In this document: one piece after another, positions 48-7,459 of the stretch
How the letters are laid out: each line of letters starts with the position of its first letter
Numbering within the stretch: position 1 is the first letter of the stretch
Assembly: GCF_013315695.1 (NCBI RefSeq)
Contig: NZ_CP054353.1
DNA: 64,000 nt
Strand: one strand, 5' to 3'
Source of the DNA: Escherichia coli
Lineage (GTDB): Bacteria > Pseudomonadota > Gammaproteobacteria > Enterobacterales > Enterobacteriaceae
Notes under the pieces: model-generated
Told to the model about the DNA's origin: nothing
The model's input: the letters and a program-made list of their open reading frames with translations, nothing else
The model's database searches: none
Position numbers and translations under genes: made by a program

Positions 48-455
48 GGCCAGGCCCAGGCGAGGGATCTCAATAGCCGGGCAGCGATCCATCACTACAT
101 TTAATCCGGCATCCCGTGCCAGTACTGCCGCTTGCTCATTAATCACCCCCAGTTGCATCCAGAGGGTTTTCGCGCCGATGGCGATCGCTTCCTGCGCTAC
201 GCCCCACGCTGCTTCTGAATTCCGGAAAACATCGACCATATCGACTTTTTCCGGAACGTCTGCCAGCGTGCCATACCCCTGCTGGCCCAGCAGTGTTTTG
301 CCAGCAACTTTTGGCGAAACCGGAATGACGTGATACCCCTGGTCGAGTAGATATTTCATCACGCGATAGCTGGGACGATCGGGTTTGTCGCTTGCCCCCA
401 CCAGCGCAATGGTGTGAGTGGACGTTAAAATGCCTGCAATATCGGTTTCTTTCAT
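42..455 (-). CDS. yccU: CoA-binding domain protein YccU
   Basis: ORF 42..536 trimmed to internal ATG at 453-455 (137 aa) with GGAGG upstream; protein recognised as E. coli YccU. Confidence 0.85.
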
Positions 456-627
456 TATTTCCTCCAGACTGTTTAACAAAGTGTACGACAAAGCCGACAT
501 GCCAACCATGCAGCTAATACGAATGAATGAGAGCAAAAGCGGGAAATATGTCTATATGTTAGTAAGTATGATTAAAGAAAAATTTTGACACATTATTATT
601 CGGGCGGTCTTTTGACAGGAGCTACCT

Positions 628-1290
628 ATGAAAACCGGCATCGTGACCACCTTGATTGCATTATGTTTGCCGGTATCCGTTTTTGCCACCACGTTGCGGC
701 TTTCAACCGATGTCGATCTTCTGGTACTCGACGGTAAAAAGGTTTCCAGCTCTCTGCTGCGCGGTGCGGACAGCATTGAACTGGATAACGGACCGCATCA
801 GTTAGTGTTTCGCGTTGAGAAGACGATTCATCTTTCCAATAGTGAAGAACGGCTGTATATCTCCCCACCGCTGGTGGTCAGTTTTAATACCCAGCTCATC
901 AACCAGGTCAATTTTCGCCTGCCTCGTCTGGAGAATGAGCGGGAAGCTAACCATTTTGATGCCGCGCCGCGCCTTGAATTGTTGGATGGCGATGCGACGC
1001 CGATTCCAGTAAAGCTGGATATTCTCGCCATTACCTCAACGGCAAAAACGATTGATTATGAGGTCGAGGTTGAACGCTATAACAAATCCGCGAAACGCGC
1101 TTCACTACCGCAATTTGCCACGATGATGGCAGATGACAGTACGCTGCTTTCGGGTGTTTCCGAGCTGGATGCTATTCCACCGCAGTCTCAGGTGCTCACA
1201 GAACAACGGCTGAAGTATTGGTTTAAACTGGCTGACCCACAAACGCGAAATACTTTCCTGCAATGGGCGGAAAAACAACCATCTTCCTGA
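628..1290 (+). CDS. yccT: Periplasmic protein YccT (DUF2057), signal peptide present
   Basis: 220-aa ORF with N-terminal signal sequence [20 protein letters not shown]; matches YccT. Confidence 0.85.
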
Positions 1291-1850: not shown

Positions 1851-1877
1851 ACAGGTGGCAAACGCCACCTGTTTCTT
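1851..1877 (+). terminator. Intrinsic terminator of mgsA; overlaps 3' end of convergent helD
   Basis: Hairpin acaggtggc-aaac-gccacctgt followed by ttctt. Confidence 0.6.
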
Positions 1878-3930
1878 ACGGTTTTCTCGCCACCGGCACA
1901 TCCAGATTTTTCAGTATTTCGACAAATGGAGAGGGATTCTCTTTGTTAAACAGTGCCCATACCCGATGGCGTGCCCGGGTCAGCGCCACGTACATTAACC
2001 GCCGTTCTTCAGCGTCCGGGAAATCCTCAACCGGTGGCAGTAGCGCCTCTTCCATAATCGACTCCCGCGCCGCAGCCGGAAAACCATCACTCCCCTCCTG
2101 CAAGCCAACGATGATGACGTAATCCGCCTGTTGCCCTTTGCTGGCATGAATGGTCATAAAGTCGATTTGCAACTTCGGCCAGCGTGTTGCCGCTTTTTCC
2201 AGGCTGGCAGCCCTCATGTGATGGTAACGCGCCAGGATCAGAATGCGCTCTTCCGGTTTGGCATAACCAGAGAGCTTATCCAGCAAAGCGTCAAGATGGC
2301 TCTCATCCAATAACGTGACGGCTTTTTTGTCTCCATTGGTTAAGCTGTTTAGCGGCTTTTTCAGCTGGCCTGGGTTCTGCTGAATAAACCGGTTTGCCAC
2401 CTCACCGATACGACTGTTAAAACGGTAAGTCGTGTCTAAATCGCAGCGATCACCTTCACCAAAGTTTTCATGGAAAGCGGTGGTGAGCGACATTTGCGCA
2501 CCGCTGAAGCGATAAATCGCCTGCCAGTCATCACCAACGGCGAACAACGTCGTCTGACTGTTTTGCTTGCGTAATGCCGCTAACAACGCTGCGCGCTGCG
2601 GCGAGATATCCTGAAATTCATCAACCAGAATATGCTTCCACGGGCTGATAAAGCGACCTTTCTCCAGAATCACAATCGCCTGGTGAATAAGGCCCGAAAA
2701 ATCGACAGCGTTTTCTGCCTTCAGCGCACCTTTCCAGGCTTTTAATAACGGAGCCATCAACTTGATACGTTTACTGAACAGATCGCGAATCTCTTCGGGT
2801 GCACTGGCAATCATTTCTGCCTGTGCACCACCGTGCATCCGCATCAGACTTACCCAACGATCGAGGCGTGAGGCAAGACGACGCTGTAATTTTTCATCAT
2901 CCCAGAAGTTACCTGCTGGCACTGACCACTGCATTTCTTCCGTCAGCCATTGCCGCCAGCCCTTCGCCTGCGCTTTCTTTTCGCTGCATTGCTTGCGCCA
3001 CTCAGCAATAAAGAGTTCATGACGGGCAGCGGTATCATTTTCCAGTTTGCTGACTATCGGAACTTTTTTGCTGCCCTGCTGAATAATATGCAGCGCCAGC
3101 GCATGAAACGTGCGTGCGGTAATGTCTTCGGTATGTAGCCGTTCGCGAATACGCTCGTCCATCTCTTCAGCGGCTTTGCGACCAAACGCCAGCAATAAAA
3201 TTTGCTCAGGGAACGCTTCACCACGCGCCAGCAACCAGCCTGCACGGGCCACCAGCACCGATGTTTTTCCGCTTCCTGCACCAGCCAGCACTAACAAAGA
3301 ATGCTCGCCATTAACGACTGCCCGGGCCTGCGCCGGATTCAGCGGTGAAGATTCGACCTGGCGGAAAAAATCCGCATACTCGGTAAGCATGGCTTCGGTA
3401 TACGCCTGATTATGCTGCAACCGAGCGCCTTCAATGTCCTTCAACCAGGCCTGACATTTACGCCACGCCTCACGGCAGTTATCGAATTCTTCCAGTCGGT
3501 TAACCGGCAACGGCAACGCCGACATAGCCTGGCGGATTTGTTGCTGAACGCCAGAGGTTTGCTCACGCGTCAGCCATTTATTTTCTCCGGTGCGCGTGGC
3601 AATTAAATCCAGTTGCTGGCGTAAAACACCAGACGCAATTTCGCTCATCTCGCCACTCCACCGCCGCCAGTGAGCATCAAGATGATGGTAAAAACGCTGC
3701 GTCTCGCCCCATTCGGTACCGTGCAGACGCACCACTTTTTCGCCCGGCAGTACAAATTCCAGCTCGCCCCATACCAGACCGCGCTTACAGTGAATCGCCA
3801 GTAATTGATTGAAAGGAATAAGGTATTCGTGGCGATCGCCGGAGACTTTAATCCCGGCATTGAGGATCACCGCCCGATCGTAAGGGTGCTGTGCCAGACG
3901 TTTTCCAAGCGTTGTCGCTTTCAGTTCCAT
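1876..3930 (-). CDS. helD: DNA helicase IV
   Basis: ORF 1876..4023 trimmed to ATG at 3928-3930 (684 aa, MELKATTLGKRLAQ...); UvrD-like helicase motifs (GSGKT). Confidence 0.92.
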   Translation of the reverse strand: MELKATTLGKRLAQHPYDRAVILNAGIKVSGDRHEYLIPFNQLLAIHCKRGLVWGELEFVLPGEKVVRLHGTEWGETQRFYHHLDAHWRRWSGEMSEIASGVLRQQLDLIATRTGENKWLTREQTSGVQQQIRQAMSALPLPVNRLEEFDNCREAWRKCQAWLKDIEGARLQHNQAYTEAMLTEYADFFRQVESSPLNPAQARAVVNGEHSLLVLAGAGSGKTSVLVARAGWLLARGEAFPEQILLLAFGRKAAEEMDERIRERLHTEDITARTFHALALHIIQQGSKKVPIVSKLENDTAARHELFIAEWRKQCSEKKAQAKGWRQWLTEEMQWSVPAGNFWDDEKLQRRLASRLDRWVSLMRMHGGAQAEMIASAPEEIRDLFSKRIKLMAPLLKAWKGALKAENAVDFSGLIHQAIVILEKGRFISPWKHILVDEFQDISPQRAALLAALRKQNSQTTLFAVGDDWQAIYRFSGAQMSLTTAFHENFGEGDRCDLDTTYRFNSRIGEVANRFIQQNPGQLKKPLNSLTNGDKKAVTLLDESHLDALLDKLSGYAKPEERILILARYHHMRAASLEKAATRWPKLQIDFMTIHASKGQQADYVIIVGLQEGSDGFPAAARESIMEEALLPPVEDFPDAEERRLMYVALTRARHRVWALFNKENPSPFVEILKNLDVPVARKP

Positions 3931-4052
3931 GACTCTGTAGATCCACACGAAATGATTTCTTATCAGTGTAACCGTCAGAGAAAACGTGCTCCAGCCCAAA
4001 AAAACGTTACAATTGCCGCCCATTACTGAAAACCACAGTAAAGCGAGGTTTT

Positions 4053-4499
4053 ATGCGTACCGTTTTGAACATTCTGAACTTTGTGCTTGGCGGATTTGCC
4101 ACCACTCTGGGCTGGCTGTTGGCGACTCTGGTCAGTATTGTGCTGATTTTTACCTTACCGCTGACACGATCCTGCTGGGAGATCACTAAACTGTCTCTGG
4201 TGCCTTATGGCAATGAAGCTATTCATGTCGATGAACTGAACCCGGCTGGCAAAAATGTGCTGCTGAATACTGGCGGTACGGTATTGAATATTTTCTGGCT
4301 GATTTTCTTTGGCTGGTGGTTATGCCTGATGCACATTGCAACGGGCATCGCACAATGTATTTCCATCATTGGCATTCCTGTCGGCATTGCGAACTTTAAA
4401 ATTGCCGCTATTGCACTATGGCCGGTCGGTCGTCGCGTGGTATCGGTAGAAACAGCGCAAGCTGCGCGTGAAGCCAATGCACGTCGTCGTTTTGAATAA
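4053..4499 (+). CDS. yccF: Inner membrane protein YccF
   Basis: 148-aa hydrophobic ORF matching YccF; immediately upstream of yccS. Confidence 0.85.
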   Translation: MRTVLNILNFVLGGFATTLGWLLATLVSIVLIFTLPLTRSCWEITKLSLVPYGNEAIHVDELNPAGKNVLLNTGGTVLNIFWLIFFGWWLCLMHIATGIAQCISIIGIPVGIANFKIAAIALWPVGRRVVSVETAQAAREANARRRFE

Positions 4500-4508
4500 T
4501 CCACTAAT

Positions 4509-6671
4509 ATGGCCTTTATGCTAAGTCCTTTGCTCAAACGCTATACCTGGAACAGCGCCTGGCTGTATTACGCGCGTATTTTTATTGCGCTTTGTGGAAC
4601 CACAGCGTTTCCGTGGTGGCTGGGTGATGTAAAACTGACGATTCCGCTGACGCTGGGGATGGTGGCAGCGGCGCTGACCGATCTCGATGACCGACTGGCG
4701 GGACGTTTGCGTAACCTCATCATTACGCTGTTCTGCTTTTTTATCGCCTCGGCCTCAGTAGAACTGCTGTTTCCCTGGCCCTGGCTATTTGCGATTGGCT
4801 TAACGCTCTCAACCAGCGGCTTCATTTTGCTCGGCGGTCTGGGTCAACGCTATGCAACAATTGCCTTCGGTGCGTTACTGATCGCCATTTACACTATGTT
4901 GGGGACGTCACTGTATGAGCACTGGTATCAGCAGCCGATGTATCTGCTGGCCGGTGCCGTCTGGTACAACGTCCTGACACTTATTGGTCATCTACTGTTC
5001 CCGGTCCGCCCGCTGCAGGACAACCTGGCGCGTTGCTATGAACAACTGGCGCGTTACCTTGAGCTCAAGTCGCGCATGTTTGATCCTGATATTGAAGATG
5101 AAAGCCAGGCACCGTTGTACGATTTGGCTCTCGCCAACGGTCAGCTGATGGCGACATTGAATCAGACGAAACTCTCGCTGCTGACCCGCTTACGTGGCGA
5201 TCGTGGTCAACGGGGAACGCGTCGCACGCTGCATTATTACTTCGTCGCGCAGGATATTCACGAGCGTGCCAGCTCTTCTCATATTCAGTATCAAACATTG
5301 CGTGAACATTTTCGCCACAGCGACGTGCTGTTCCGTTTTCAGCGGCTGATGTCGATGCAGGGCCAGGCGTGCCAGCAACTGTCACGTTGTATTTTGTTGC
5401 GTCAGCCTTATCAACATGATCCGCATTTCGAGCGCGCTTTTACGCATATTGATGCTGCGCTGGAGCGGATGCGCGATAACGGCGCACCTGCCGATTTACT
5501 CAAAACACTGGGATTTTTGCTGAACAATTTACGCGCCATTGATGCCCAACTGGCAACAATTGAATCAGAACAGGCCCAGGCACTGCCCCATAATAATGAC
5601 GAAAATGAGCTCGCTGATGACAGCCCGCACGGATTGAGTGATATCTGGCTGCGTCTTAGCCGTCACTTCACGCCGGAATCCGCCCTCTTCCGTCATGCGG
5701 TAAGAATGTCGCTGGTGTTGTGCTTCGGCTACGCCATCATTCAGATAACCGGAATGCATCACGGGTATTGGATCTTGCTGACAAGTTTGTTTGTCTGCCA
5801 GCCAAACTATAACGCCACGCGCCACCGCCTGAAGTTAAGGATTATTGGGACGCTGGTCGGTATCGCCATTGGCATTCCTGTGCTGTGGTTTGTACCGTCA
5901 CTGGAAGGGCAACTGGTGCTACTGGTTATTACCGGCGTGCTCTTTTTTGCCTTCCGTAACGTGCAATACGCCCATGCAACGATGTTCATCACACTTTTGG
6001 TGCTACTTTGTTTTAACTTGCTGGGTGAAGGTTTTGAAGTGGCGTTACCTCGCGTAATCGATACGCTGATTGGTTGTGCCATTGCGTGGGCGGCGGTGAG
6101 CTACATCTGGCCTGACTGGAAGTTTCGCAATCTGCCGCGCATGCTCGAACGTGCCACCGAGGCCAACTGTCGCTATCTCGATGCCATACTGGAGCAATAC
6201 CATCAGGGGCGTGATAACCGTCTGGCGTATCGTATTGCCCGCCGCGATGCACACAACCGTGATGCCGAACTGGCGTCGGTGGTATCAAATATGTCCAGCG
6301 AGCCGAACGTTACCCCGCAAATTCGCGAGGCCGCGTTTCGGTTGCTGTGCCTTAACCATACGTTTACCAGCTATATCTCAGCCCTCGGTGCTCACCGGGA
6401 GCAGTTAACTAATCCTGAAATTCTGGCGTTTCTTGATGACGCAGTTTGCTATGTTGATGGCGCGTTACATCATCAACCTGCTGATGAAGAACGCGTCAAT
6501 CAGGCATTAGCTGGCCTGAAACAGCGGATGCAGCAACTTGAACCACGGGCAGACAGCAAAGAACCTCTGGTCGTACAACAAGTTGGGTTATTGATTGCAT
6601 TACTGCCAGAGATTGGTCGTCTGCAACGCCAGATTACTCAAGTTCCGCAGGAAACTCCTGTTTCGGCGTAA
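4509..6671 (+). CDS. yccS: Inner membrane protein YccS (putative efflux/FUSC-like family)
   Basis: 720-aa polytopic membrane ORF matching YccS; true start could be the ATG at 4518. Confidence 0.85.
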   Translation: MAFMLSPLLKRYTWNSAWLYYARIFIALCGTTAFPWWLGDVKLTIPLTLGMVAAALTDLDDRLAGRLRNLIITLFCFFIASASVELLFPWPWLFAIGLTLSTSGFILLGGLGQRYATIAFGALLIAIYTMLGTSLYEHWYQQPMYLLAGAVWYNVLTLIGHLLFPVRPLQDNLARCYEQLARYLELKSRMFDPDIEDESQAPLYDLALANGQLMATLNQTKLSLLTRLRGDRGQRGTRRTLHYYFVAQDIHERASSSHIQYQTLREHFRHSDVLFRFQRLMSMQGQACQQLSRCILLRQPYQHDPHFERAFTHIDAALERMRDNGAPADLLKTLGFLLNNLRAIDAQLATIESEQAQALPHNNDENELADDSPHGLSDIWLRLSRHFTPESALFRHAVRMSLVLCFGYAIIQITGMHHGYWILLTSLFVCQPNYNATRHRLKLRIIGTLVGIAIGIPVLWFVPSLEGQLVLLVITGVLFFAFRNVQYAHATMFITLLVLLCFNLLGEGFEVALPRVIDTLIGCAIAWAAVSYIWPDWKFRNLPRMLERATEANCRYLDAILEQYHQGRDNRLAYRIARRDAHNRDAELASVVSNMSSEPNVTPQIREAAFRLLCLNHTFTSYISALGAHREQLTNPEILAFLDDAVCYVDGALHHQPADEERVNQALAGLKQRMQQLEPRADSKEPLVVQQVGLLIALLPEIGRLQRQITQVPQETPVSA

Positions 6672-7263
6672 GAGAGTCAGCCCATTCTGCAAGCTCCTGG
6701 CGGCGTGCCACCGGGAGCGCAGCTTCATGAATGCCGATAATGGCCCCTTCAAGCATAAACAGAATCTTTTCTGTCACCAGACTGTTTTGCTGCCGCAGTC
6801 GCAACCAACACATTTTTGCCCCAAGTATACGTAACGCCCGTACATCCTTAATCCCCACCTCCCCGAGAATCGCTTCCAGATGAAAAGACATATTGGGCAA
6901 ATCTTTCAGTCTTTCCCGGGTATTGCGCGTGCTTTTCTCTTTCAGCGCTGCATCGAGAGAATATTTCGACAGACGCACCAGCTTCAGTTGATTTCGCCAT
7001 AGACTTTCATCAACTCGATAGTAATTGAGGGTAACGGATCGGCCACACTTTTTATATGTCAGCCAGACAGGCGGATGTTTTACACAGTACTGTGCACTTT
7101 GCTCACAAGCCCGAAGATACAACTCACCATCAGAAACCATCGCAAACACCGTGTCGTCAACGGTCAGGCTGTAACTGCCAAACAATGATCGGTATTCAAT
7201 TGTGCCCAACGTTGCCAGGTATTCTTGTGATTTATAGATCCGCTTATAGGAGAGGCTTTTCAT
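6634..7263 (-). CDS. sxy: Competence/CRP-S regulon activator Sxy (TfoX)
   Basis: 209-aa ORF matching E. coli Sxy/TfoX; 3' end overlaps yccS convergently. Confidence 0.9.
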   Translation of the reverse strand: MKSLSYKRIYKSQEYLATLGTIEYRSLFGSYSLTVDDTVFAMVSDGELYLRACEQSAQYCVKHPPVWLTYKKCGRSVTLNYYRVDESLWRNQLKLVRLSKYSLDAALKEKSTRNTRERLKDLPNMSFHLEAILGEVGIKDVRALRILGAKMCWLRLRQQNSLVTEKILFMLEGAIIGIHEAALPVARRQELAEWADSLTPKQEFPAELE

Positions 7264-7439: not shown

Positions 7440-7459
7440 TACTGTACATTCATACAGTA
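7440..7459. promoter_or_regulatory. LexA operator (SOS box) of sulA
   Basis: tactgtacattcatacagta = CTGT-N8-ACAG palindrome 23 bp upstream of the sulA ATG. Confidence 0.85.

Follow-up and report, generated by a model that had tools for sequence, protein, structure and literature searches.

What do yccF and yccS do, and do they do it together? The two genes lie side by side in the 64,000-nucleotide stretch of Escherichia coli DNA that was analysed here (contig NZ_CP054353.1; the window), and a preliminary description had called them a conserved membrane-protein pair of poorly defined function. The latter judgement is still correct. A full-text literature search found no paper in which yccF, yccS or yhfK, the yccS paralogue, is given a function. 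Mentions of yccS and yccF are confined to gene lists, i.e., a dye-uptake screen, a SNP classifier, ChIP tables and SOS lists, and the existing annotation of YccS reads "putative transporter". At the level of family and fold, however, a function of YccS, anion efflux of the FUSC/ALMT type, can be inferred. The view that we favour, and hold to be rather probable as a whole, combines three elements: yccF and yccS form a co-transcribed unit of the core genome, YccS is an ALMT-like anion-efflux channel, and YccF is an unrelated protein whose juxtaposition with YccS is specific to Enterobacterales.

As such, this is an ordinary, already known y-gene locus. Its genes are genuine and belong to the E. 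coli core genome: of the 5426 complete E. coli genomes, 5425 carry the 4-kb yccF-yccS region at ≥90% identity, and the annotated order there is helD(-), yccF, yccS, sxy(-) and sulA. This annotation agrees with the position between helD and sxy that had been described. The identities of the two genes (148 and 720 residues) and the gap of 9 nt between them (4500-4508) were likewise borne out by the ORF listing, the Pfam and NCBIfam matches and the annotation (Table 1); RefSeq PGAP makes the same call for yccS. A defence or phage origin was rejected, as the region has no PADLOC or PHROGs matches. Its repeats are short chance matches only.

Table 1. Features of the yccF-yccS locus in window coordinates; residue numbers of YccS refer to the 720-residue reading frame.
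Feature	Position	Strand	Basis
helD	1876..3930	-	annotation transferred to window coordinates
helD-yccF divergent intergenic region; must hold the yccFS promoter	3931..4052	.	helD annotation and sequence
Shine-Dalgarno-like GAGG, 4 nt before the yccF ATG	4045..4048	+	read from sequence
yccF CDS, ATG start, 148 aa; small inner-membrane protein	4053..4499	+	ORF listing, Pfam/NCBIfam matches, AF2 model
YccF repeat 1 (residues 2-61)	4056..4235	+	hhalign of repeat 1 with repeat 2; two stretches of PF03733
YccF repeat 2 (residues 75-134), with family motif IIGIPxG	4275..4454	+	hhalign
yccF-yccS junction; first ATG after 9 nt, conserved ATG after 18 nt	4500..4517	+	sequence, locus comparison
yccS CDS, longest ORF, ATG start, 720 aa; probable true start 4518 (717 aa)	4509..6671	+	ORF listing, NCBIfam, start comparison
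YccS N-terminal half (residues 1-375): six TM at about 16-163, helical cytosolic domain 167-350, FUSC-like PF12805	4509..5633	+	
R66 codon; N-half counterpart of R444	4704..4706	+	hhalign of N with C half
YccS C-terminal half (residues 376-720): six TM at 392-532, six cytosolic helices 538-711, FUSC_2 PF13515, ALMT-like	5634..6668	+	
R444 codon; aligns with the ALMT TM3 arginine, invariant in 97 members	5838..5840	+	alignment
R515 codon; aligns with the ALMT TM6 arginine, >90% conserved	6051..6053	+	alignment
Overlap (38 nt) of the convergent coding 3' ends of yccS and sxy (sxy, 6634..7263, -)	6634..6671	.	ORF listing

The two genes are co-transcribed, and the operon that had been presumed from their arrangement can be accepted. 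A yccFS operon convergent with sxy had already been described from RNA-seq (Conway et al. 2014; PMC4161252), most of 78 Enterobacterales loci from several families have a gap of about 7-26 nt between the genes, and a sequence scan saw no terminator-like site between yccF and yccS. The junction has no Shine-Dalgarno-like sequence ahead of the E. coli yccS. Because yccS thus lacks such a sequence of its own, its translation is likely coupled to that of yccF.

The 720-residue call stands as the longest open reading frame, but neither this length nor the 9-nt gap probably reflects the true start. Among the 78 loci, Escherichia and most Citrobacter alone have the first ATG (4509); C. youngae ATCC 29220 has AAG at this position. 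The second ATG (4518, MLSP...) is the start that is conserved across these loci, and YccS of Salmonella and E. fergusonii is annotated at 717 residues. Judged from this comparison, yccS probably starts at 4518, which yields 717 residues and a gap of 18 nt after yccF.

A consensus scan of the helD-yccF intergenic region found no strong sigma-70 promoter there; a weak -10-like TACAAT is seen at 4008-4013. A yccF::lacZ fusion displayed weak and FNR-independent activity (PMC1802558). Control of yccF by FNR was rejected: helD contains the published ChIP site (window 3800-3823), whose effect on the yccF promoter was marginal (PMC1802558). Membership in the LexA/SOS regulon was dismissed as well, because there is no LexA box near yccF, the sole match in the window with at most three mismatches being at 7440-7459 upstream of sulA, and because yccF mRNA is not induced by ciprofloxacin (log2 fold change 0.05 to -1.05; PMC11002266). 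For CRP and CRP-S, motif counts within and around yccFS are at chance level, and such sites were discarded. In ETEC a CRP ChIP peak lies within yccS, without a motif.

By its profile matches YccS is a member of the FUSC/ArAE-ALMT superfamily and an inner-membrane protein. It scores 1258.5 bits against TIGR01666 (the YccS family; cutoff 470.75) and 1161.5 bits against TIGR01667 (the YccS/YhfK subfamily; cutoff 467.8), the matches covering residues 11-709. The Pfam matches are PF12805 (E 1.7e-115, residues 69-348), PF13515 (E 8.6e-29, residues 408-528) and PF04632 (E 1.9e-9). A scan of the genome collection with a 26-sequence YccS alignment returned Enterobacterales only. Structure prediction and remote-homology search, which had been recommended for YccS, yielded a confident AlphaFold (AF2) model (pLDDT 94.2, pTM 0.93) and ALMTs as relatives, both by Foldseek and by profile. 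The topology of the model is six TM segments and seven helices, then six TM segments and six helices. A simple BLAST of one half against the other found nothing; a profile comparison was needed, and hhalign aligned the N with the C half over 186 columns (probability 94%, E 1.2e-7). This comparison shows that YccS arose by internal duplication of a unit that consists of six TM segments and a helical cytosolic domain.

The solved relatives of YccS are all from plants. The ten top hits of Foldseek in the PDB were without exception ALMT1, ALMT9 or ALMT12 (probability 1.0), with TM-scores of 0.46-0.58, normalised to target length, over 363-393 columns, i.e., about one half of YccS. No other significant solved relative was found in that search, which leaves the ALMT/QUAC channels (AtALMT1, 7VOJ/7VQ3; AtALMT9, 8HIW; GmALMT12, 7W6K). 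The YccS family profile recognises GmALMT12 with an E-value of 1e-9 and AtALMT1 and AtALMT9 with about 2e-7, always in the TM domain of the C half; PF13515 corresponds there to TM2-TM6 of ALMT, the pore-forming part. Common to YccS and the ALMTs are six TM segments followed by a cytosolic domain of six helices, the PF13515 core, the arginines in TM3 and TM6, and a P-x-W motif after TM6. An alignment of 97 YccS family sequences (22-61% identity) shows R399, W421, T437, R444, G447 and G451 without any substitution, and R515, P535 and W537 conserved at more than 90%. The C half accordingly has both pore arginines of the ALMTs, whereas the N half retains only R66; hhalign of the two halves offers no N-half counterpart of R515. 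In ALMTs the arginines coordinate malate in the pore (bioRxiv 10.64898/2026.03.10.710584). ALMTs are homodimers of a single repeat, whereas YccS has two diverged repeats in one chain, the N-terminal one of which, unlike ALMTs, has lost the TM6 arginine. Sequence identity is only 12-16%, and gating by aluminium, GABA or malate is not implied.

How might such a protein work? A single YccS chain probably reproduces the two-subunit architecture of the ALMTs, with a central pore between its two TM domains. The pTM of the whole chain indicates that the two halves are confidently packed in the model; the pseudo-dimeric pore itself we infer from topology, pTM and alignment, not from the model coordinates. 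It would be lined by R444 and R515 of the C half and R66 of the N half. Most likely, YccS would export an organic anion of the di- or tricarboxylate or aromatic-carboxylate kind in channel mode, driven by the inside-negative membrane potential. It would act without partners at the inner membrane, since no gene for a membrane-fusion or outer-membrane component is found beside yccS in the loci examined, its E. coli neighbours being helD, yccF, sxy and sulA. The missing TM6 arginine of the N half, however, counts against this picture; it would make the pore asymmetric, perhaps with a behaviour unlike that of ALMTs.

A bacterial channel of this type has been proposed. Rv2571c of Mycobacterium tuberculosis, a FUSC protein with a single repeat, has been described as an ALMT-like export channel for alpha-ketoglutarate, and its TM6 arginine is essential (bioRxiv 10.64898/2026.03.10.710584). 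With YccS it shares the FUSC domain, the predicted ALMT-like fold and the absence of pump partners. Unlike YccS, it has one repeat, is predicted to be a homodimer and lacks the TM3 arginine. By analogy, Rv2571c may serve as a functional precedent for the export of metabolite anions by a bacterial FUSC member.

YccF is a very conserved small membrane protein that is unrelated to YccS. It matches PF03733 in two stretches (E 8.5e-28, 97.2 bits, cutoff 27) and the NCBIfam equivalog NF008739 with 298 bits (cutoff 213). The two repeats align with each other over 60 columns (hhalign; probability 99.6%, E 4.6e-25), which shows YccF to be a tandem duplication of a unit of about 60 residues; a single-repeat homologue of 57 residues exists in Eubacterium eligens. 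In the AF2 model (pLDDT 90.8) each repeat is predicted as a long helix, the IIGIP turn, a short helix and a beta strand, and the whole would pack as a four-helix bundle. No solved structural relative was found for YccF.

The pairing of the two proteins is restricted to one order. In Enterobacterales, yccF and yccS are adjacent in 78 of 81 loci and in all ten enterobacterial metagenome loci (88 of 91 enterobacterial loci overall). Outside this order, YccS is not a neighbour at any of about 92 YccF loci, and none of eight YccS loci in other lineages, four non-enterobacterial contigs among them, has yccF beside it. On three Vibrio replicons helD directly adjoins yccS with no yccF between them, and on one of these yccF is found 130 kb away. 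Further, Photorhabdus (two loci), a Morganellaceae-like contig of 62% identity and Superficieibacter have yccS beside helD and sxy but no yccF there. YccF homologues have no recurrent neighbour: 141 flanking ORFs contain 153 Pfam families with three members per family at most. Co-localisation across distant lineages, the mark of a conserved two-gene module, is thus not seen. The pairing is an Enterobacterales-specific juxtaposition, not an ancient two-component system. In Enterococcus gilvus and E. raffinosus, yccF converges with a TfoX-family gene, a layout as in E. coli but without yccS. A linkage of YccF with TfoX/Sxy was nevertheless dismissed as chance, because an HMM search of the about 92 non-enterobacterial YccF loci found TfoX in that one lineage only. 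Linkage with M23 peptidases (Vibrio sp. HDW18, Parabacteroides, Phocaeicola; 3 of 141 flanking ORFs) is equally unconvincing.

Pumps of the same superfamily suggest other readings of both proteins. AaeB (YhcP; AaeXAB, p-hydroxybenzoate efflux) and MdtO are ArAE proteins (TC 2.A.85) with the same twofold layout of six TM segments and a cytosolic domain as YccS; they are encoded together with a membrane-fusion protein (MdtP being the outer-membrane factor), which yccS is not. They are regarded as efflux pumps that work with these partners, not as channels, and this counts against a YccS channel. In front of the pump genes stands aaeX, the gene of a small membrane protein, which superficially recalls yccF. 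YccS could therefore be imagined as an AaeB-like, PMF-coupled secondary pump for aromatic carboxylic acids. It shares the two-repeat architecture and the Pfam FUSC domains with ArAE proteins, its family is annotated as a putative transporter, YdhK and other E. coli relatives are listed by TCDB under ArAE 2.A.85, and NCBIfam detects a weak similarity to MdtO (E 1.8e-5), which at 23.5 bits against a cutoff of 821 is marginal. Yet the sole solved homologues are channels, a recent report (bioRxiv 10.64898/2026.03.10.710584) describes a bacterial FUSC protein as one too, and yccS has no linked gene for a membrane-fusion or outer-membrane protein. We regard a pump as possible but doubtful. YccF, in turn, might serve YccS as a dedicated subunit with an accessory or regulatory role in a two-component transporter, in concept like AaeX ahead of aaeAB. 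Co-transcription, co-orientation and the suggested translational coupling would fit this idea, as would a conservation of YccF across Enterobacterales (69-99% identity) that exceeds that of YccS (63-99%). The tight spacing kept in most enterobacterial families even points to selection for the juxtaposition, which is hard to square with an independent YccF. Against such a subunit stand the lack of co-localisation outside Enterobacterales, the unlinked genes on one Vibrio replicon, the persistence of yccS without yccF, and the absence of any recurrent neighbour of YccF homologues. AaeX, moreover, is not of the YccF family; PF03733 is the only Pfam match of YccF. We consider an accessory role rather unlikely.

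A further alternative disregards the proteins altogether. The overlap of yccS and sxy leaves no room for separate terminators, and the sequence scan saw no terminator-like site after yccS. In all but three of 81 Enterobacterales loci the 3' ends of the two genes overlap by 4-120 nt or are less than 70 nt apart. Mutual read-through of the convergent operons seen by RNA-seq (PMC4161252) might thus constitute an excludon that helps to keep the competence co-activator Sxy low, the membrane proteins being incidental; sxy-yccS is indeed listed among convergent excludons (PMC12288877). However, strong purifying selection acts on YccF and YccS, and both come from large families that also occur without sxy; they must therefore have functions of their own. 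A role as an excludon would be additional, not alternative, and that it is the point of the locus appears quite improbable. An ALMT-like channel next to an unrelated YccF remains our preferred reading.

E. coli has a second protein of this kind. YhfK (696 residues), a YccS paralogue of the TIGR01667 subfamily, is equally uncharacterised and only 25-32% identical to YccS over parts of the sequence. Its gene, on the same strand as crp, begins 50 bp downstream of it and is not accompanied by a yccF-like gene. Each paralogue therefore lies beside one partner of the CRP-Sxy switch, yccS abutting sxy and yhfK abutting crp. In the patent literature, yhfK is said to be a glutamate-export gene. That, if this placement is no coincidence, the family is tied to cAMP or competence physiology, e.g., as an efflux channel for cAMP or for a nucleotide-derived or catabolite anion with a dosage that tracks the regulators, is a speculation to which we give hardly any credence.

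New here are the fold of YccS, the fold of YccF and the lineage-specific nature of their pairing. The vague label of a putative transporter can be replaced by a specific hypothesis, namely that YccS is a single-chain ALMT-like channel with R66, R444 and R515 as candidate pore residues; YccF would not be its obligatory partner. Beyond the general problem of uncharacterised y-genes in E. coli the locus matters little. If, however, YccS or YhfK exports a central metabolite, as is reported for Rv2571c, the family would be of interest for metabolic overflow, acid stress and strain engineering.

The two open reading frames that the preliminary description had placed next to each other between helD and sxy are indeed yccF and yccS, and their coordinates hold exactly. 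For YccF, the NCBIfam equivalog model gives 298 bits, the cutoff being 213, and two stretches of the protein match Pfam PF03733. The TIGR01666 'YccS' model gives YccS 1258 bits (cutoff 471), and the Pfam families PF12805, PF13515 and PF04632 are matched as well. In view of these family profiles, they are not chance ORFs. Of 5426 complete E. coli genomes, 5425 contain the 4-kb yccF-yccS region at ≥90% identity, and the annotated order there is helD(-), yccF, yccS, sxy(-), sulA, ompA; the window thus belongs to the E. coli chromosome, and the two genes were named correctly. The pair was already known among the y-genes of E. coli. To call it functionally poorly defined was appropriate: our literature search turned up no publication in which yccF, yccS or the yccS paralogue yhfK is given a function, and mentions are incidental. 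yccS is one of the knockouts that affect carbocyanine dye accumulation and appears on a machine-learning SNP list for meropenem. Neither YccF nor YccS matches the defence or phage libraries.

Features of the yccF-yccS locus (window positions, or residues of YccS)
Feature	Position	Strand	Remark	Source
helD, longest ORF	1876-4023	-	715 aa; RefSeq: 684 aa, start at 3930	
FNR site AGTAATTGATTGAAAGGAATAAGG	3800-3823		within helD CDS, ~230 nt upstream of yccF	ChIP-chip, Grainger et al. 2007
yccF CDS	4053..4499	+	148 aa ORF	
yccS CDS, longest ORF	4509..6671	+	720 aa; 9 nt after yccF	
yccS/sxy 3' overlap	6634-6671	convergent	yccS stop 38 nt within sxy CDS	
sxy CDS	6634..7263	-	convergent to yccS	
LexA box TACTGTACATTCATACAGTA	7440-7459		upstream of sulA	motif scan
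YccS N-half	residues ~16-163; 167-350		six TM helices; seven cytosolic helices	AlphaFold2 model
YccS C-half	residues 392-532; 538-711		six TM helices; six cytosolic helices	AlphaFold2 model

The proposed two-gene operon is corroborated: a sequence scan of the locus revealed no terminator-like site between yccF and yccS or after yccS, and a 'yccFS operon' converging with sxy has been described (Conway et al. 2014, PMC4161252). In the 78 Enterobacterales loci that contain both genes, the gap between them is mostly 7-26 nt, in three ~90-170 nt. GAGG is found 4 nt 5' of the yccF ATG. No SD-like sequence precedes E. coli yccS, which makes it plausible that its translation is coupled to that of yccF. 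Across the 78 loci, the first ATG of the 720-aa yccS ORF is confined to Escherichia and most Citrobacter; the second one, at 4518 (MLSP...), is the start common to other genera and yields a YccS of 717 aa and a gap of 18 nt, as annotated in Salmonella and E. fergusonii. With the 5' extension of its longest ORF, helD would be separated from yccF by just 29 nt, and the annotated shorter start thus appears more plausible. At the other end, with three exceptions among 81 Enterobacterales loci, the 3' ends of yccS and sxy either share 4-120 nt or are separated by <70 nt, and sxy-yccS is listed among the published convergent excludons (PMC12288877).

As to regulation, the FNR site has a marginal effect on the weak yccF promoter and little on either promoter (Grainger et al. 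2007, PMC1802558). The SOS link, which the preliminary description had proposed to check because of the flanking sulA, was not borne out. The sole LexA box nearby is that of sulA; a scan of all 64 kb that allowed up to 3 mismatches gave no other match, chance expectation being none, and yccF figures on an SOS gene list yet is not induced by ciprofloxacin (PMC11002266). LexA control of yccF was, therefore, rejected. In ETEC, a CRP ChIP peak lies inside yccS, but without a motif, and the counts of CRP and CRP-S motifs around yccFS are at chance level. yhfK follows crp on the same strand at a distance of 50 bp (L187:4501-7274, the crp-yhfK locus), and yccS reaches into the 3' end of sxy; each of the two E. 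coli paralogues of the family thus adjoins one partner of the CRP-Sxy pair. This placement may be a coincidence; the yccS-sxy adjacency is specific to Enterobacterales. The only Rfam match in the window at the gathering threshold is the PyrD leader (RF02373, 97.9 bits; 23494-23567, minus strand).

YccF consists of two tandem ~60-aa units (hhalign probability 99.6%, E 4.6e-25) and carries the family motif IIGIPxG. Its AlphaFold2 model is confident (pLDDT 90.8): a long helix, a short helix and a beta strand occur twice, followed by a basic C-terminal helix. Across Enterobacterales it is better conserved than YccS. The family is widespread, being detected by tblastn in Alpha- and Gammaproteobacteria, Actinomycetota, Bacteroidota and Bacillota. 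Eubacterium (Lachnospira) eligens has a single-repeat YccF of 57 aa (L092:4001-4174), which implies a dimer of the ~60-aa repeat as the family's functional unit. Beyond the picture of a highly conserved membrane protein of four helices, small and internally duplicated, there is no lead to the mechanism of YccF.

Could YccF be a subunit of YccS? Within Enterobacterales the two genes go together: 78 of the 81 genome loci, and all ten enterobacterial metagenome loci, share the order mgsA-helD(-)-yccF-yccS-sxy(-)-sulA. yccS is kept without yccF, the absence referring to the locus only, in two Photorhabdus loci (L077, L080), in Superficieibacter electus (L031) and in a Morganellaceae-like contig of 62% identity (L188); there yccS adjoins helD. 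In S. electus, ~2.3 kb are also inserted between yccS and sxy. Outside Enterobacterales, however, the link vanishes. A profile search of the flanks of ~92 YccF loci (14 chromid/plasmid records, 8 viral contigs and 70 metagenome contigs) detected no YccS-like neighbour, nor did any neighbour family recur (153 Pfam families in 141 flanking ORFs, at most 3 members each). Near four YccS representatives of 42-49% identity there is neither yccF nor a TfoX gene. In three Vibrio replicons (L191:1165-5635, L192, L193) a yccS ortholog (43-44% identity) adjoins helD divergently, while yccF and sxy are absent from the locus; V. campbellii also keeps mgsA beside helD, and in Vibrio sp. HDW18 yccF lies 130 kb from yccS on one replicon. 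The pairing being limited to Enterobacterales, the subunit idea is weakened. The Vibrio arrangement indicates that mgsA-helD|yccS is the older synteny and that yccF, inserted between helD and yccS, and sxy, downstream, came later, as features of Enterobacterales. The divergent Vibrio pair consists of the DNA helicase IV gene and a putative transporter gene.

Some other neighbours of yccF deserve mention. An M23/DD-metallopeptidase gene adjoins it in Vibrio sp. HDW18 (L086:3998-5873), where a bactofilin gene comes next, and in the Bacteroidales genera Parabacteroides and Phocaeicola (L089:2699-4369; L097); at 3 of 141 flanking ORFs, this points no more than faintly to the cell envelope. On megaplasmids of Enterococcus gilvus and E. 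raffinosus (L090:4001-4923, L098:4001-4947), the YccF gene converges with an 84-aa TfoX/Sxy-family gene, only a 56-aa ORF lying between, which resembles the E. coli yccF...sxy layout. Not being seen in ~90 other YccF loci, this linkage is probably due to chance.

Among 1.84 billion cluster representatives, YccS has 5535 relatives (E ≤ 1e-3), and the best 150 of these are all nearer to YccS than to YhfK. The AlphaFold2 model, built from a 97-sequence alignment (22-61% identity), is very confident (pLDDT 94.2, pTM 0.93), with lower confidence in the linker between the halves. Profile-profile alignment of the two halves (probability 94%, E 1.2e-7, 186 columns) supports an internal duplication. 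In a Foldseek search of the PDB, the top ten matches are all plant ALMT anion channels (GmALMT12/QUAC1, AtALMT1, AtALMT9), each with probability 1.0 and an alignment that covers about half of YccS; there was no other significant PDB match. The family profile finds the same proteins through the C-half TM domain (E 1.1e-9 for GmALMT12, ~2e-7 for AtALMT1 and AtALMT9). We are highly confident of this assignment of family and fold. AaeAB or MdtNOP type ArAE systems have a linked membrane-fusion or outer-membrane gene; yccS, in contrast, has none among its E. coli neighbours.

An ALMT subunit comprises 6 TM segments plus 6 helices and works as a homodimer with a central pore, the pore-forming part, TM2-TM6, being spanned by PF13515. 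YccS, with six TM helices and a helical cytosolic part in each half, is thus most readily interpreted as an asymmetric pseudo-dimer of ALMT architecture in a single chain. The invariant family residues R399, W421, T437, R444, G447 and G451 are all in the C half. R444 and R515 align with the TM3 and TM6 arginines that reportedly coordinate malate in the ALMT pore (bioRxiv 10.64898/2026.03.10.710584); in the N half, R66 corresponds to the TM3 arginine, and the TM6 one has no counterpart. YccS would accordingly mediate efflux of anions, i.e., organic acids, through an ALMT-like pseudo-dimeric pore, which we rate, with some reserve, as its likeliest mechanism. A precedent for metabolite-anion efflux by a bacterial relative is Rv2571c of M. 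tuberculosis, a proposed alpha-ketoglutarate export channel (bioRxiv 10.64898/2026.03.10.710584), which has a single repeat, whereas YccS has two in one chain.
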